From Agathobacter sp. (GTDB lineage Bacteria > Bacillota > Clostridia > Oscillospirales > Oscillospiraceae), in the NCBI GenBank assembly GCA_963636325.1, contig CAVHKA010000004.1, positions 1 through 32,674 of the forward strand: DNA of 32,674 nt, given 5' to 3'. A program made the position numbers and the translations under genes. Below the pieces are notes generated by a model. The model saw only the letters and a program-made list of their open reading frames with translations, made no database searches and was not told the DNA's origin. How positions within the stretch are numbered: the first letter of the stretch is position 1; each line of letters begins with the position of its first letter. This document shows, in pieces, positions 11,988 to 16,868 of this stretch.

Positions 11988-12142
11988 CACAACAGAAAAT
12001 GATACGGATTCTCCTGAAAAACAGGATAAACCTCCACTTTATCCGACTTAATTGAACTGTTTTCTTTTCTTTCTTATTTTCTCTCTTTGTTCCTGCATCC
12101 CTGTAAAGAAAAAACCGGACGGAAGTCCGGTTTTTTCTTTTT
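11988..12142 (+). ncRNA. Candidate LysR-regulated small RNA (about 150 nt)
   Basis: Promoter TTTACA-17-TATGGT (11954-11982) or TGGTATAGT; hairpin GGATAAA-CCTCCAC-TTTATCC; long C/U tract; own terminator; no RBS-led ORF. Confidence 0.55.
12105..12142 (+). terminator. Intrinsic terminator (symmetric, could act on both strands)
   Basis: AAAGAAAAAACCGGAC-ggaa-GTCCGGTTTTTTCTTT. Confidence 0.85.
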
Positions 12143-12153
12143 GTGTGGGGGTG

Positions 12154-12182
12154 AAAGAAGGGCGGCCGCAGGCCGCCTTTCT
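12154..12182 (-). terminator. hpf terminator
   Basis: AGAAGGGCGGCC-gca-GGCCGCCTTTCT hairpin about 12 nt after hpf stop. Confidence 0.7.
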
Positions 12183-12193
12183 CCCATATATAA

Positions 12194-12730
12194 TTACTCC
12201 TGCGTCTCGATGATGCCGTAGCCGCCGTTGTTGCGGCGATAGACCACCGAGATGGTGTCGTCCGCCACATTGCGGAACACATAGAAGGTATGATCCAGCA
12301 GGTTCATCTGCAAGATGGCCTCGTCGATGGTCATGGGCTTGACGGTGAAGCGCTTGGTGCGCACCACATGGAACTCGTCCTCCTCTTCCACATGGAACTC
12401 AGGCAGCTCCGGTTCCATGACCTCCGGCCGCAGGTTCTTGGCCAGGCGGGTCTTGTTCTTGCGGATGCGGCGCTCGATGAAACTGACGGTCCCGTCGATG
12501 GCGCCCCGCATGTCACCGTCGGGATCCTCGGCCTGGGCACGGAACAATGTGCCGTTGGCGGCGCGGATGGTCAGCTCCACGGTGCAGCGGTTTTTCTTTT
12601 CCACGGCAAAGGTCACAAATGCGTCCGCTTCCTCCGCGAAGTACCGGTCGAGCTTACTGATCTTCTTCTCGGCGTACTCCTTAATGGAGTCGTTCAGCGC
12701 GATCTTCTTGCAGGCGAATGTGAACTTCAT
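12194..12730 (-). CDS. hpf: Ribosome hibernation promoting factor, long HPF/RaiA
   Basis: IKEYAEKKISKLDRYF, ERRIRKNKTRL, C-terminal VRTKRFTVKPMTIDEAILQMNLLDHTFYVF..VVYRRNNGGYGIIE. Confidence 0.96.
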   Translation of the reverse strand: MKFTFACKKIALNDSIKEYAEKKISKLDRYFAEEADAFVTFAVEKKNRCTVELTIRAANGTLFRAQAEDPDGDMRGAIDGTVSFIERRIRKNKTRLAKNLRPEVMEPELPEFHVEEEDEFHVVRTKRFTVKPMTIDEAILQMNLLDHTFYVFRNVADDTISVVYRRNNGGYGIIETQE

Positions 12731-12798
12731 ATTGGTTGCTCCTTTCTTGGGGTACGGAACAAAGGGTCGGGGAGGGATTTCCCCTTATCCTTGTCCGC

Positions 12799-12827
12799 AT
12801 TATAGCACATTGCCCTGCATTTGAAAA
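12799..12827 (-). promoter_or_regulatory. Sigma-A promoter of hpf
   Basis: Minus strand TTTTCA-17 bp-TATAAT with extended TG. Confidence 0.65.
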
Positions 12828-12965
12828 GACCATCACAGTAAATTTAGGGAAAGTTCACAAAAGTGAAACAATTTTTGTGCGTTTCGACGAGGTGTGCCGA
12901 AAATCGTGAAAAAGCGGCAAAACCTCCTATGGACAAGACGGGGGCAGATGGTGTACCATAATACC

Positions 12966-13028
12966 CGGAAGCTTTCCAATATCCCACCCGCTTGAGCCGT
13001 GTCCCGAAAAGGGACGCGGCTCCTTTTT
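12966..13028 (+). ncRNA. Candidate very short sRNA (about 60 nt)
   Basis: TGGACA(12930)-18-TACCAT or CATAAT promoter, C-rich single strand ATCCCACCCG, strong terminator GAGCCGTGTCCC-gaaaa-GGGACGCGGCTC-CTTTTT with no plus-strand gene upstream. Confidence 0.45.
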
Positions 13029-13049
13029 ATAATTTGAGGTACGGCAACT

Positions 13050-13277
13050 CAAAGCCTCCCCTGTGTAAGGGAGTGAAATGGGTGGATAAAATGTTGTAGG
13101 GGCGGACGACTCTGTCCGCCCCAAAATCCCGTATGAATATCGTCAGGGCGGACAGGGTCGTCCGCCCCTACAAATGGAAGCAAGGAGCCGCTGCGCCATC
13201 GCGGCGGGACACGCGGGTCCCGCCCTACGGGTGTCTGCCGCCGGTGCTCTCGTAGGGCGGGGCCAATGTGCCCCGCC
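13050..13277. repeat. Repeat cluster: partial two-hairpin unit plus four GTAG-type REPs
   Basis: Partial unit 13050-13073; REPs at 13096-13121, 13146-13171, 13203-13228, 13252-13277. Confidence 0.85.
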
Positions 13278-13297
13278 GGGGAAACATCTCCCCAACC

Positions 13298-13326
13298 TTG
13301 CCATTTTCCCCTTTGTGTGGTATGCT
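13298..13326 (+). promoter_or_regulatory. Sigma-A promoter of radical SAM cassette
   Basis: TTGCCA-17 bp-TATGCT with extended TG; AGGAGG RBS before ATG 13366. Confidence 0.7.
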
Positions 13327-13365
13327 TGGGGCACGGGGGCGTATGCCGCCCCACAGGAGGATTCT

Positions 13366-14745
13366 ATGAAGCATATGACATTCCGGGAGCGGCGCTATCG
13401 CCGCGCCCATCTGGACTGCGTGCGCCACATCACCCTGAACCCCAAGGGCCCCGGCGTGGTGCGCATCCACATGATACCGCCCAGGGATGAAACGCCGGAC
13501 GCGCCGTTCCTGCTGCTGCTCAACGGCGCGTCGCTGGTGCCGCTGAATCTCAGCTGGGCCATCATGCTGGCCAACCTGATGGACCAGTGGCAGGCCTATG
13601 AGGGGCAGGAGCTGGAGGAGCGCCAGTGGGAGGCCCTGCTGACGGCGGCGGTGGAGGAGACCCACCGCACCTATCCCCGCACCAAACGCCAGCAGCTGGC
13701 CGCCGACATGCACCTGATGCTGACCAGCCTCATCGCCATCGCCCAGGGCCGGGAGCCGGAAGCGGAGGTGGCGCTGCTGACGCTGGCGGACTGCGCGCCG
13801 GAGATGACCGCGCCCCACCGGATGGATCTGATGGTCAGCGCCATGGAGAAGGACGGTGCGTGGCACTGCAACCAGAAATGCCTGCACTGCTACGCCGCGG
13901 GCCAGCCCATGGGCGAAACGCCGGAGTTATCCACCGAGCAGTGGAAAACCCTTCTGGATACCCTGCGGAAAGCCAACATCCCCCAGGTGACCTTCACCGG
14001 CGGCGAGCCGACCCTGCGGAGCGATCTGGTGGAGCTGGTGCGCGCGGCGGAGTGGTTCGTCACCCGTCTGAACACCAACGGCCGCGCCCTGACGCCGGAG
14101 CTGTGCGCCGGGCTTTACGACGCCAGTCTTGACAGCGTGCAGGTGACACTGTACAGCGCTGAGGGCAACATCCACAACCAGCTGGTGGGCGTCAACGGCT
14201 TCAACGACACGGTGCAGGGCATCCGCCACGCGGTGGAGGCCAGGCTGATCGTGTCGGTGAACACGCCGCTGTGTTCCCTCAATACCCACTATGCCGACAC
14301 GCTGCGGTTCGCCCACAGTCTGGGCGTGCGGTACGCCACCTGCTCCGGGCTGATCCCCTCCGGCAGCGCCTGCGGACAGGAGAGCCGGGCCACGGCCCTG
14401 ACCCCCGATGAGCTGACGGACATCCTCCGTCAGGCGGTGGAGACGGCCCGGGAGCTGGGCATGGAGCTGGACTTCACCTCCCCCGGCTGGCTCAGCGAAA
14501 GGACGCTGCGCTCGCTGGGGCTGAACCTGATCCCCAGCTGCGGCGCGTGTCTCTCCAACATGGCGGTGACGCCGGACGGCAAGGTGGTGCCCTGTCAAAG
14601 CTGGCTGTCCGATGAGCCGCTGGGCGACCTGCTGCAAGATGACTGGAAGGACATCTGGAACAGTCCCCGCTGCGCCGCCATCCGGGCGGAGAGCGTGAAA
14701 ATGGAGCACCTCTGCCAGCTGAAGGGAAAGGAGGCGGCGGAATGA
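13366..14745 (+). CDS. Radical SAM protein with N-terminal RRE/PqqD-like extension and C-terminal SPASM/Twitch domain
   Basis: CNQKCLHC (Cx3Cx2C), FTGGEPTL, LNTNG, SCGACLSNMAVTPDGKVVPCQ...LGDL...WKDIWNS; start set by RBS AGGAGG. Confidence 0.9.
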   Translation: MKHMTFRERRYRRAHLDCVRHITLNPKGPGVVRIHMIPPRDETPDAPFLLLLNGASLVPLNLSWAIMLANLMDQWQAYEGQELEERQWEALLTAAVEETHRTYPRTKRQQLAADMHLMLTSLIAIAQGREPEAEVALLTLADCAPEMTAPHRMDLMVSAMEKDGAWHCNQKCLHCYAAGQPMGETPELSTEQWKTLLDTLRKANIPQVTFTGGEPTLRSDLVELVRAAEWFVTRLNTNGRALTPELCAGLYDASLDSVQVTLYSAEGNIHNQLVGVNGFNDTVQGIRHAVEARLIVSVNTPLCSLNTHYADTLRFAHSLGVRYATCSGLIPSGSACGQESRATALTPDELTDILRQAVETARELGMELDFTSPGWLSERTLRSLGLNLIPSCGACLSNMAVTPDGKVVPCQSWLSDEPLGDLLQDDWKDIWNSPRCAAIRAESVKMEHLCQLKGKEAAE

Positions 14746-15827
14746 AAAAGCTTCTCACTTTGCTGTTGGGCCTTGGCTTGGCCCTGTGTCTCAGCGTGAT
14801 GGCCTGGGCGGATTACGACTACATCAACGATTACAGCGTGGACGTCCAGCCCAACACCGATGACGGCAGCCTGAACATCACCGTTTCCCTGACATGGACG
14901 GCGCTGGAGTCCCTGCCCTACGGGCAGGAGCTGAAGATCGGCATCCCCAACGGTTCCATCCGGGAGGAGACGGCCCTGACCGACAACATCGAGCGGCTGG
15001 AATACGACAACAGCTATATGTATGTCTACCTTGACCGGGCCTACGACGAGGGCGAGACCTTCACCTTCGCCTATTCCTGGGTGCAGGAATATATGTATAC
15101 GCTGGACGGCGATACGGTGTCCTACGACTATACCCCCGGCTGGTTCGACGAGGCCAAGATCGGGAAAATGACCCTGCTGTGGCGGGACCCCGCCGGTCTT
15201 ACCGGCGATTTCAGTGACACCTCCGCCAGCGGCGACGTGGCGCGGGAGGACGGCCTGTTGGCCATTACCGACGCCGGTCTGGACTACGGCGAGACCATGA
15301 ACGTCCGGGTGCGGTATGCCGACTGGCCCACCGTGCTGGATCAGGCGTACAGCGCCGACAATGTGCCCGCCGACTACAACGGCGGCTACTATGACGATTA
15401 TGACGATGATTACGGCTATGGCGACGGCAGCCTTGTGGTGCTGGCCATTTTCGTGGTGATCATCTTTCTGGTGATCATCTGGGCCAGCAGAAACGACGGC
15501 TACCGGGGCGGCTTCGGCACACATTATGTGTTCGTCAACCATCTCTGGTACCCTGCCGGGCCTGACGGCAGGCCCCGGCCCGGCAGCGTGGGCACCAAGA
15601 CGCGGCCCCGCCCGCCCCGCAGCGGCGGTGGCGGCTTTGGCGGCGGAAGCCGGGGCGGCGGATTTGGCGGAGGCGGCTTCGGCGGCGGAGGCCATTGCGC
15701 CTGCGCCAGCAGCTGTGCCTGTGCGTGCGCCTGCGCCTGTGCCGGCGGCGGCCGTGCCGGATGCAGCGCCAAGAATCTCTACGGCGCCGTGAAGCTGAGC
15801 CGCGAGGTAACGGAAAAGCTGCAATAA
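14742..15827 (+). CDS. Signal-peptide, single-pass membrane protein with acidic beta-rich ectodomain (DUF2207-like) and Gly-rich/(Cys-Ala)n cytoplasmic tail
   Basis: Signal peptide ending AWA; INDYSVDVQPNTDDGSLNITV start of ectodomain; TM LVVLAIFVVIIFLVIIWA; tail GGGGFGGG...HCACASSCACACACACAGGGRAGC; AAGGAGG RBS and ATGA overlap. Confidence 0.88.
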   Translation: MKKLLTLLLGLGLALCLSVMAWADYDYINDYSVDVQPNTDDGSLNITVSLTWTALESLPYGQELKIGIPNGSIREETALTDNIERLEYDNSYMYVYLDRAYDEGETFTFAYSWVQEYMYTLDGDTVSYDYTPGWFDEAKIGKMTLLWRDPAGLTGDFSDTSASGDVAREDGLLAITDAGLDYGETMNVRVRYADWPTVLDQAYSADNVPADYNGGYYDDYDDDYGYGDGSLVVLAIFVVIIFLVIIWASRNDGYRGGFGTHYVFVNHLWYPAGPDGRPRPGSVGTKTRPRPPRSGGGGFGGGSRGGGFGGGGFGGGGHCACASSCACACACACAGGGRAGCSAKNLYGAVKLSREVTEKLQ

Positions 15828-15840
15828 GGAGAAATCATGC

Positions 15841-16008
15841 GGCGGCCTGAGGGCAGGCCGCCCTACGGATGCTGAAGGCACGTTCTTTGACCAAAGCCTC
15901 CCCTGTGCAAGGGGAGGTGGCACGGCGTATGCCGTGACGGAGGGGTTGATGGTCAATCCCCCAGTCAGCCTTGCGGCTGACAGCCCCCTTTACACAAGGG
16001 GGCCTTTG
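15841..16008. repeat. One GTAG-type REP plus an inverted pair of two-hairpin repeat units
   Basis: REP 15841-15866; units 15892-15947 (minus) and 15955-16008 (plus). Confidence 0.85.
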
Positions 16009-16036
16009 GTGTACCGCCGCAGCCGTTTCCCCAAAC

Positions 16037-16068
16037 AAAAAAAGAGACAGCCAGGGCTGTCTCTTTTT
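16037..16068. terminator. Bidirectional terminator between Cys-tail gene and divIC
   Basis: AAAAAGAGACAGCC-ag-GGCTGTCTCTTTTT. Confidence 0.8.
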
Positions 16069-16076
16069 CCATAATT

Positions 16077-16379
16077 TCAATGATTCACGTCGTAGAAGAT
16101 CCGCTCGCCGTCCTCGGCCAGACCCAGCAGATCCCGGGCCAGCGCCTTGATGAAGCTCTCGTCGTCCTTCTTGGAAAGGTCGGAGCGCAGGGCGTCGTTC
16201 TCCTGTTGCTGCTGGGTCAGCTGCTGGTTCAGCACCGATTCCTCCCGCTGGGCGGTTTTCAGCTGGCCATATACCTTCACGATCTGGATGCCCAGCACCG
16301 CCACCAGCGCCAGGATCACCACCACCAGCACTGCCGGGGGACGCTTTTTTGTCCGCTTGGTTTTCTTCTTGTCTGCCAT
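16077..16379 (-). CDS. divIC: Septum formation initiator DivIC/FtsB family
   Basis: Basic N-terminus, one TM, coiled coil, FIKALARDLLGLAEDGERIF signature; own AAGGAGG RBS before ATG 16379. Confidence 0.88.
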   Translation of the reverse strand: MADKKKTKRTKKRPPAVLVVVILALVAVLGIQIVKVYGQLKTAQREESVLNQQLTQQQQENDALRSDLSKKDDESFIKALARDLLGLAEDGERIFYDVNH

Positions 16380-16868
16380 GGCGCTGCCTCCTTCCTGCTG
16401 CCGCGCGGCGTTGTCATGGCCCTTGCGCCATGCTTCCACCCTTATTGTAGCGCAGCCGCGCAGAAAAGAAAAGCCCTTTTTGACGGATTCTGCCAGTTTT
16501 TTTGTGCCCCGCCACAAAAAAACGAAGGGCAGCCCCACAAGACGGCACACCGCCACCAGCGCCGCCGCCCAGAAATCCCATACCGGTCGCAGCAGCCGGG
16601 AGGGGACGCAGAACCACAGCACCGCGCCCAGCGCCATGCCCGTGACCATATAGAGCCGCAGCTCCCCCTCCCCCACCACCAGCGCCAGCCACAGCACGCC
16701 CGCGCCCAGCAGCGCCACGAACAGCGCGTCCAGCAGATGGGTCAGCAGCCGGTCCCGGCGGTCCAGGAGCCGGGCGGCCCGCAGTACGTCATACACAAGG
16801 CCGCCTGCCGCGCCCAGCGCCACCGCCGCGCCCAACTGCTGCAGCTGGGCCGCCACATAGTTCTCCAT
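16077..16868 (-). CDS. yabQ: Spore cortex protein YabQ, reading in frame into divIC (no stop before 16077)
   Basis: GLVYDVLR, LLDALF, GELRLYM motifs; follows yabP with 1-nt overlap. Confidence 0.8.
   Translation of the reverse strand: MENYVAAQLQQLGAAVALGAAGGLVYDVLRAARLLDRRDRLLTHLLDALFVALLGAGVLWLALVVGEGELRLYMVTGMALGAVLWFCVPSRLLRPVWDFWAAALVAVCRLVGLPFVFLWRGTKKLAESVKKGFSFLRGCATIRVEAWRKGHDNAARQQEGGSAMADKKKTKRTKKRPPAVLVVVILALVAVLGIQIVKVYGQLKTAQREESVLNQQLTQQQQENDALRSDLSKKDDESFIKALARDLLGLAEDGERIFYDVNH

Follow-up and report, generated by a model that had tools for sequence, protein, structure and literature searches.

What does a radical S-adenosylmethionine (radical SAM) enzyme act on when the gene beside it encodes a large membrane protein with a cytoplasmic tail packed with cysteines? 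The question is raised by two overlapping genes, gene 1 and gene 2, in a stretch of Agathobacter sp. DNA 32,674 nucleotides in length (GenBank assembly GCA_963636325.1, contig CAVHKA010000004.1, positions 1 to 32,674 of the forward strand; referred to below as the window). Gene 1 encodes the radical SAM enzyme and gene 2 the membrane protein, which ends in an alternating Cys-Ala run and a short conserved segment that follows it. A first-pass annotation of this locus, made from the sequence alone, had proposed that the tail of the membrane protein is the substrate of the enzyme, in the manner of RiPPs (peptides that are made by ribosomes and modified after translation). The analysis described here favors, at somewhat better than even confidence, a dedicated enzyme-substrate pair in which gene 1 places a RiPP-like modification, probably a thioether, on a tail that is tethered to the membrane. 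(The chemistry is what we infer from the relatives of the enzyme.)

The two genes are strictly linked. In a set of 72 related loci, mostly from metagenome-assembled genomes of Oscillospiraceae (gut, rumen, faeces), with some from Lachnospiraceae and other Clostridia, a gene 1 homologue directly adjoins a gene 2 homologue in every case, lying upstream of it at 69 loci (contig ends truncate L011, L037 and L070) and downstream at L071-L073. Vescimonas sanitatis is one of the organisms to which these loci are assigned. In an even sample of the class, 399 Clostridia genomes scored for the enzyme clade at a threshold of E<=1e-40, the clade is present in 8 genomes, no match falls in the interval from 1e-124 to 1e-40, and in each of the 8 the two genes lie side by side. 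A gene 2 profile finds these same 8 genomes and one more, G022, to which the match is weak and partial. More distant homologues of the enzyme, in other classes of Bacillota, occur in 15 further genomes of a phylum sample (401 Bacillota genomes). For 14 of these 15 the locus was fetched (G603 was left out), and at all 14 the adjacent large protein has a signal peptide, an ectodomain, one transmembrane helix, a cytoplasmic stretch and a Cys-Ala run; the 12 other genomes of the phylum sample that match the gene 2 profile are all among the 15 with the distant enzyme. The adjacency that was first read from this single window holds at every locus inspected in these samples. Relatives of gene 2 number more than 2,400 at E<=0.001 among 7,999 scored (478 clusters at 50% identity), and the pair is carried by ~2-4% of the sampled Bacillota genomes.

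The lineage divides into subfamilies that differ in the enzyme as well as in the exact form of the tail. A sister subfamily (8 loci) has an enzyme with 38-42% identity along its full length and a tail of the form ...CACVSCACACACAGG[R/G]GAGC[A/T]-x-KF. A third (6 loci) combines an enzyme of 30-36% identity, in which the SPASM domain is complete, with a partner of 475-535 residues. This partner has the exact end ...CACACACA[SS/GG]GGCT (also given as ...CACACACASSGGCT), and its ectodomain is a homologue of the gene 2 ectodomain (hhalign probability 98.5%, E 1.6e-15). The proteins of the sister subfamilies have no NCBIfam name. The common companion of the enzyme lineage is a Cys-Ala tail on a membrane-anchored ectodomain protein. 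At one locus of the 8-locus subfamily (L099), the next two genes encode, according to Pfam, a TPM-domain protein (28.2 bits) and LemA (63.4 bits), and open reading frames with the same conserved ends, as judged by eye, are found at L095-L097, L100 and L102. At L098 (2443-4284) and L100 (2364-4439), a single reading frame encodes the Cys-Ala-tailed protein together with the TPM-like protein downstream of it, which makes the Cys-Ala run internal there and not C-terminal. At L089 (G340:C14, 6767-10078), two tandem gene 2 copies precede the radical SAM gene; both bear the motif, their tails being CACACACACAGGGRAGC and CACACAYACACAGGGRAGC.

The anatomy of gene 2 is as first described: a signal peptide, an acidic Cys-free ectodomain, one transmembrane helix and a tail, the 8 cysteines of which fall within 23 residues (positions 319, 321, 325, 327, 329, 331, 333 and 341; the only other cysteine is at position 16). 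The protein of the window has no Pfam, NCBIfam or PADLOC family match. The segment AWADYDY, at the end of the signal peptide, is invariant among close relatives. The ectodomain has an isoelectric point (pI) of 4.05, with 43 Asp and Glu against 10 Lys and Arg. It is modeled as a beta-sandwich, for which Foldseek finds the N-domain of M1 aminopeptidases and LTA4H, and OST1 (E ~4e-7 to 5e-7, TM-score ~0.3-0.4); on this model, the ectodomain is a non-catalytic fold of a binding type. The tail is modeled with low confidence, at a predicted local distance difference test score (pLDDT) of ~40. That it faces the cytoplasm, as the first-pass annotation had argued, follows from the combination of a signal peptide with one transmembrane helix, and net charge is more positive after the helix than before it in 48 of 66 gene 2 relatives.

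The consensus of the tail motif, (CA)nGGGRAGC-S-x-K-D/N-F/L-Y, hardly varies even where overall identity is 30-40%. Close relatives (~67-86% identity) all have HCACASSCACACACACAGGGRAGCS-KN-Y. In representatives with 27-61% identity, for which the mean column identity is 25%, C329, A330, C331, A334, G335, G337, R338, G340, C341 and K344 are still invariant, and C327 and C333 are kept in at least 90%; the motif persists while the ectodomain falls to ~30% identity. In the 66 relatives, the last Cys is followed by Ser (54 of 66), a variable residue and Lys (66 of 66). The fourth position is Asp in 49, Asn in 7, Glu in 4, Gly in 4, and Gln and His in 1 each; next come Phe (54) or Leu (9), and Tyr (57). 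The number of tail cysteines varies from 5 to 9 in these relatives, by way of extra upstream C-A/V-H/S-S-S units. The 13-residue core CACACAGGGR[A/V]GC, which occurs only once in the window's own genome, is encoded by 64 different DNA sequences, among which every one of the 13 codons shows synonymous change. This implies constraint at the level of protein and not a DNA repeat. On these alignments, the tail is under strong protein-level selection, far beyond chance.

Gene 1 is a radical SAM enzyme by its CX3CX2C motif and by Pfam (Radical_SAM, PF04055, 64.4 bits against a cut-off of 29.5). Its C-terminal auxiliary domain, initially called SPASM-type, does match Pfam SPASM (PF13186, 42.4 bits against 21.5, residues 392-451), and the segment C395-x9-G-x4-C410 is the first half of the SPASM/Twitch motif. 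A full SPASM domain has seven cysteines (CX9-15GX4C ... CX2CX5CX3C ... C) binding two auxiliary clusters. Gene 1 does not have this seven-Cys pattern: the CX2CX5CX3C block, which sister clades keep, is deleted in its clade, and its auxiliary domain is thus better described as a degenerate SPASM, or Twitch-like, domain. In an alignment of 30 homologues from related loci, C326, C392, C395, C410 and C436 are invariant and C450 is nearly so. NCBIfam returns 56 weak matches. NirJ2 leads them with 96.5 bits, where 500 would be required, and no model among the 25 best of these 56 reaches its cut-off, which places gene 1 outside every named equivalog (PqqE, MftC, ScmE/F, GeoRSP, WgkB, TIGR04133 and others). 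Three sister-clade enzymes likewise stay below all NCBIfam cut-offs.

The AlphaFold2 model of gene 1 (mean pLDDT 86.8) has a domain ahead of the radical SAM barrel, consisting of strands at residues 20-24, 32-37, 48-52 and 56-60 and helices at 62-78, 85-102 and 108-126. Structural alignment places SkfB first (Z 27.6, root-mean-square deviation 4.8, 338 residues aligned at 23% identity, model residues 32 to 448) and SuiB second (Z 26.1, 363 aligned, model residues 22 to 459). [quoted passage not shown] Sequence comparison with the PDB likewise puts SkfB first (E 3.1e-20). These nearest characterized relatives use an N-terminal domain to bind a peptide, and the bond that they form is at a Cys; by analogy, gene 1 may be expected to do both. 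The enzyme and the tail share a compartment, and the tail is the only conserved Cys-rich element nearby.

A conventional substrate would be a short precursor peptide, and the first-pass annotation had found no reading frame for one in the unit. A search of divergent loci gives the same answer. When all stop-to-stop frames of 15-100 residues around the pair were clustered for 21 divergent loci, no conserved small frame in or beside the unit was found outside the two genes; the clusters that span lineages are shadow frames of the two genes, low-complexity sequence or Oscillospiraceae synteny. Nor, among 16 divergent loci, is a third gene family conserved with the pair (only two families are common to all 16), and no leader protease or exporter is conserved there. 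Short stand-alone versions of the tail do exist in databases: 77 proteins shorter than 198 residues match gene 2 residues 290-361. The 11 + 8 that were inspected start inside a protein or join the tail to unrelated N-termini, and were rejected as precursors; most come from one or a few contigs. In P0431, P0440, P0447 and P0123, a DnaJ J-domain or the first half of the radical SAM enzyme is joined to the Cys-Ala tail, the J-domain joins being at a shared Gly/Phe-rich stretch and one being a radical SAM-gene 2 fusion. These short proteins are probably fragments and chimeras of metagenome assembly.

The following sequence of events would account for the pair. Gene 2 would be exported by its signal peptide and anchored by its single transmembrane helix, leaving the basic, disordered tail in the cytoplasm. 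There, the soluble gene 1 enzyme would recognize it, probably through its N-terminal RRE-like domain and probably at the invariant segment around GGGRAGC-S-x-K-D/N-F/L-Y. Cleavage of SAM at the CX3CX2C cluster would lead to abstraction of a hydrogen atom from a tail residue, and a Cys sulfur would be joined to that carbon, as is done by sactionine or ranthionine synthases. One candidate unit is C341-x3-N345 (C-x3-D in most relatives), and the upstream Cys-Ala units, variable in number, may be further donor sites. Since no protease or exporter travels with the pair, the modified product would remain tethered to the membrane. Its biological role may lie with the envelope-associated DUF2207/TPM/LemA modules; an envelope-associated function is suggested by the DUF2207-like character of the ectodomain (discussed below) and by the TPM and LemA neighbors in one subfamily.

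The computational checks that had been proposed along with the original idea all turned out in its favor. One of them, modeling of the complex, lends the pairing weak support. The enzyme together with gene 2 scored 0.60, and the best of three controls 0.00. This is a weak pass of a mark that is reached by 116 of 157 solved complexes and by 2 of 215 mismatched pairs; runs agreed in at least 33% of contacts, and the pLDDT of the partner was at least 51.

Several observations weigh against the interpretation of the tail as a thioether substrate. Scores of 0.60 or less are shared by only 18 of those 157 solved complexes and by both of the passing mismatches; passes in this range are more often wrong than right unless the interaction was likely beforehand, and the prediction returned no interface. 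The likeness of the N-terminal domain to an RRE is read from a predicted fold and from where the alignments start and stop. None of 10 such domains scanned matches PqqD in Pfam, and the Atlas offers PqqD only as a weak lead (0.86, with PqqD in 11% of one cluster); hence the term RRE-like rather than RRE. The residue four positions after the last Cys is not invariant, which means that there is no obligatory acceptor there, and its replacement by Gly, Gln or His in 6 of 66 relatives means that C-x3-D/N/E cannot be the only site. Typical thioether synthases retain a second SPASM cluster motif, and this clade has lost it. The invariant Ala residues, the GGGRAGC segment and the minimum of four cysteines would also suit a metal or cluster site. 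Finally, the radical SAM homologue in one of the eight Clostridia genomes (G309:C79:12983-14332) has one in-frame TAA, and may be a pseudogene or reflect a sequencing error; the adjoining tail-bearing gene is intact as far as the contig reaches.

The metal site just mentioned is the strongest competing explanation, and had already been named as the alternative in the first-pass annotation, although it is in our judgment unlikely. The tail would be a metal- or Fe-S-binding module at the inner face of the membrane, and the radical SAM enzyme would assemble or insert its center or take electrons from it, possibly linking the ectodomain to radical chemistry in the cytoplasm. The smallest conserved set is one of four cysteines (from the invariant C329, C331 and C341 and the nearly constant C327 and C333), and invariance of the intervening Ala residues and of GGGRAGC is what a fixed geometry would require. 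A cluster supplied from outside could compensate for the CX2CX5CX3C motif that the clade has lost, and cluster-building enzymes of the NifB type are among the structural matches (Z ~18). Yet sister clades that retain a full SPASM domain bear the same kind of tail, and variation from 5 to 9 cysteines is more like a set of repeated substrate sites. The best relatives of the enzyme are, moreover, peptide modifiers with an N-terminal peptide-binding domain. The disorder of the modeled tail also speaks against a metal site, although an apo form would be expected to look the same.

More doubtful still is the possibility that the tail is the substrate of a different chemistry: formation of formylglycine or dehydroalanine (as by anSME), epimerization of Ala or Cys (as by EpeE/YydG), or C-C or other cross-links. 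The structural matches do include anSME (Z ~25) and the epimerase EpeE (Z ~18), and alternation of Cys with Ala provides no obvious set of acceptors for many thioether rings. However, the match that is best in sequence as well as structure is to a thioether synthase, SkfB, and the Cys-Ala repeat is followed in 60 of 66 relatives by a PapA-like C-x3-D/N/E unit (see below). The motif by which anSME recognizes sulfatases, C-x-P/A-x-R, is absent from the tail. (A glycyl-radical site of the R-V-x-G-Y type was also considered and, like the sulfatase motif, does not fit the tail sequences.)

That the enzyme acts instead on a peptide or small molecule encoded elsewhere, with gene 2 as an accessory (anchor, immunity protein or sensor), is very improbable: NirJ, AhbD, BlsE and MoaA, which act on small molecules, are among its weak NCBIfam and PDB matches, but the NCBIfam matches fall well short of their cut-offs, the pair stands by itself in genomic contexts that are unrelated, with no conserved small reading frame alongside, and what varies together with the enzyme in the three subfamilies is the Cys-Ala tail. 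Two further identities were set aside. The "putative bacteriocin" family YxzE of Pfam is matched by 8 of 67 relatives, over the transmembrane/Gly-rich segment and at no more than 26 bits against a cut-off of 40, which is not homology. As to a known defense system, PADLOC gave generic viperin-type radical SAM matches for gene 1 and nothing for gene 2. The enzyme-substrate pair with a membrane-tethered tail, probably bearing thioethers, is accordingly retained as the preferred reading of the locus; its features and signals are collected in the table.

Table. Features of the two-gene unit and its surroundings, in window positions.
Feature	Position	Strand	Remarks
22-nt direct repeat flanking the two-gene unit	13050..13071 and 15892-15913	+ (first copy)	family D4, 95% identity
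Promoter-like site TTGCCA-17-TATGCT, TG before the -10	13298..13326	+	sigma-70-like consensus match only, 9/12
Ribosome-binding site AGGAGG, 5 nt ahead of gene 1 ATG	13355..13360	+	read from sequence
Gene 1, radical SAM / degenerate SPASM (Twitch-like) enzyme, 459 residues	13366..14745	+	
N-terminal RRE-like domain of gene 1, residues ~20-126: four strands, three helices	13423..13743	+	AlphaFold2
Radical SAM cluster motif CX3CX2C (C168, C172, C175)	13867..13890	+	invariant in 30/30 homologues
Auxiliary-cluster region, residues 392-451: C392-x2-C395-x9-G405-x4-C410, then only C436, C450	14539..14718	+	
Gene 2, membrane protein, 361 residues; start overlaps gene 1 stop (ATGA)	14742..15827	+	
Signal peptide, residues 1-23, ...MAWA/DYDY	14742..14810	+	modeled helix 2-17; cleavage site inferred
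Acidic, Cys-free beta-sandwich ectodomain, residues 24-228	14811..15425	+	pLDDT >90 over ~26-192
Single transmembrane helix, residues 229-251 (about)	15426..15494	+	
Cytoplasmic Pro/Gly/Arg-rich linker, residues 252-318; basic, modeled as disordered	15495..15695	+	tail pI 9.5
Cys-Ala motif HCACASSCACACACACAGGGRAGC, residues 319-341, 8 Cys	15696..15764	+	
Conserved follower S-x-K-N-L-Y... to C-terminus, residues 342-361	15765..15824	+	
Terminator: 13-bp hairpin, A run before, T run after	16039..16068	.	could serve both converging units

The unit had at first been taken to begin at 13298. A promoter-like site is indeed present there, and its first hexamer explains the coordinate; the coding start is most likely the ATG at 13366. 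(The stretch 12700-16200 contains four such promoter-like sites, where shuffled sequence would be expected to give 0.7. An alternative longer frame, from 13174, is without an AGGAGG-type site and crosses palindromic repeats.) Other elements of the original description of the unit, that is, the ATGA overlap at 14742-14745, which is read directly, a terminator downstream and flanking genes on the opposite strand, are borne out. The terminator hairpin has a free energy of -18 kcal/mol (z -5.4), with 0 of 200 shuffles equally stable, and is absent from the output of a simple terminator scan. The 220 bp that separate it from the gene 2 stop hold additional hairpin-forming repeat sequence.

The flanking opposite-strand genes encode, by Pfam, a LysR regulator, a ribosome hibernation factor (S30AE), YabQ+DivIC and YabP, with S4, HU and a Polysacc_synt/MurJ-like protein farther on. 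In the YabQ+DivIC case, one reading frame (16077-16868, - strand) joins a YabQ spore-cortex domain (residues 13-87) to a DivIC septum-formation domain (residues 184-260); with the YabP, S4, HU and SpoVB/MurJ-like genes that come after it, this is a neighborhood of sporulation type. Just upstream of gene 1, at 13094-13173 and 13202-13278, are two pairs of 28-nt inverted repeats, 96% and 82% complementary and with sequences of the type TGTAGGGGCGGAC..., which resemble repetitive extragenic palindromic (REP)-type elements and produced spurious matches to microRNA families in Rfam. Between the hibernation-factor gene and gene 1, the stretch 12930-13030 is non-coding and contains a promoter-like site (12930-12959, +) and, at 12994-13022, a GC-rich hairpin of 12 bp that has a T run. 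Shadow frames of this stretch are kept in at least 7 Oscillospiraceae loci (L019, L035, L039, L046, L057, L060 and L063). It could be a small RNA or a leader of the hibernation-factor gene; an Rfam scan of 12000-16300 gave no match near gathering score.

The module formed by the two genes is abundant, occurs in gut and rumen Clostridia, and is nameless in Pfam, NCBIfam and the literature searched. Radical SAM maturases have been mined almost only beside short peptides, and a substrate that is the tail of a membrane protein of 300-500 residues is therefore invisible to such pipelines. If the tail is modified, RiPP-type chemistry would extend to integral membrane proteins, and there would be a first handle on the function of the large, uncharacterized DUF2207/LemA/TPM envelope modules. 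Because the motif is short, invariant and C-terminal, the hypothesis is directly testable by co-expression and mass spectrometry. A broader possibility, to which we assign a low probability, is that membrane-tethered RiPP-like tails form a class, of which this pair would be the first example: envelope proteins of the DUF2207 superfamily in Bacillota would each have a dedicated radical SAM enzyme that turns the cytoplasmic (Cys-Ala)n into a new covalent structure, such as a thioether ladder or a protein-derived sulfur or metal cofactor, and this structure would be a permanent cytoplasmic signaling or redox module of an envelope sensor and not a secreted natural product.

How does the pair compare with what is already known? 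For the ectodomain of gene 2, a remote relationship with DUF2207 (PF09972), short of membership, is likely on sequence grounds. N-terminal matches to DUF2207 are sub-threshold in 21 of 67 relatives (best E 1.9e-5; P0140 has 20.1 bits against a cut-off of 24.4), the protein of the window has no DUF2207 match at E<=0.1, and the nearest named Atlas cluster is DUF2207, at a score of 0.88 that is a lead only. DUF2207 proteins differ in having a multi-pass C-terminal transmembrane domain in place of the one helix of gene 2. DUF2207 and TPM proteins commonly have a C-terminal tail rich in Gly; neither a Cys-Ala tail nor a radical SAM partner belongs to the DUF2207 proteins described so far. The one DUF2207 study that can be cited concerns SMU.243 of S. 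mutans and, in the part of it available, deals with stress tolerance and biofilm (PMC10457818).

Set beside RiPP systems with radical SAM maturases in general, the module would work in a similar way, and differs in having no short precursor and no protease or exporter. SkfB/SkfA (PDB 6EFN) is the closest of these in structure. SkfB shares with gene 1 a radical SAM core and an auxiliary domain reduced to the Twitch type. It has a peptide-binding domain at its N-terminus, of which the RRE-like domain of gene 1 is a candidate counterpart, and it acts on Cys of a polypeptide encoded next to it. Gene 1 is not a member of the SkfB family (TIGR04403), scoring 63 bits against a cut-off of 300. SkfA, moreover, is a short exported peptide with a protease/transporter set, whereas the presumptive substrate here is the tail of a 361-residue membrane protein, and the pair has no conserved companion genes for processing or export.

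The first-pass annotation knew of no characterized system of this architecture. With respect to the pair itself, that statement stands: no system in Pfam, NCBIfam or PADLOC matches it, and a search of open-access papers and preprints (supplements and subscription journals lay outside it) found no description of the pair or of its motif. The concept, on the other hand, has a precedent, and is less novel than had been supposed now that CrpC/CrpA has been published. According to the available part of that 2026 report, CrpC, a radical SAM/SPASM enzyme with an RRE, installs ranthionine links on CrpA, a 28.8 kDa Cys-rich protein of Methanococcus voltae, in its C-terminal repetitive Cys-rich region, and its authors speak of a RiPP-like modification of a protein (PMC13692751). 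As is proposed for gene 1, an enzyme thus modifies a full-size protein encoded beside it, by thioethers. The details are different: as the same part of the report has it, CrpC is archaeal and has three clusters, and CrpA is of a soluble type with ten 17-residue repeats and C-x-x-Q/D motifs, with neither membrane anchor nor (CA)n tail (PMC13692751). The family of CrpC is TIGR04463; this model is absent from the 25 best of the 56 NCBIfam matches of gene 1, any score for it being below 45.2 bits.

For the arrangement of donors and acceptors, the nearest parallel is the freyrasin ranthipeptide system, PapB/PapA. PapB links Cys to Asp in CXXXD, of which PapA has six, and model substrates of the form CSAN-x are described in the available part of the report (PMC12373016). 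The same source presents PapA as a short leader-core peptide and PapB as having two auxiliary clusters, in both of which respects they are unlike the present pair (PMC12373016). The Cys-Ala repeat of gene 2 also differs from PapA in offering no Asp or Glu partners. What PapA shares with gene 2 is the use of repeated Cys donors and an acceptor located four residues downstream (PMC12373016), the equivalent in gene 2 being the S-x-K-D/N/E that comes after the last tail Cys in 60 of 66 relatives. In its variable number of Cys units, gene 2 also resembles PapA and CrpA with their repeated sites, to the extent that the accessible portions of the two reports describe them.

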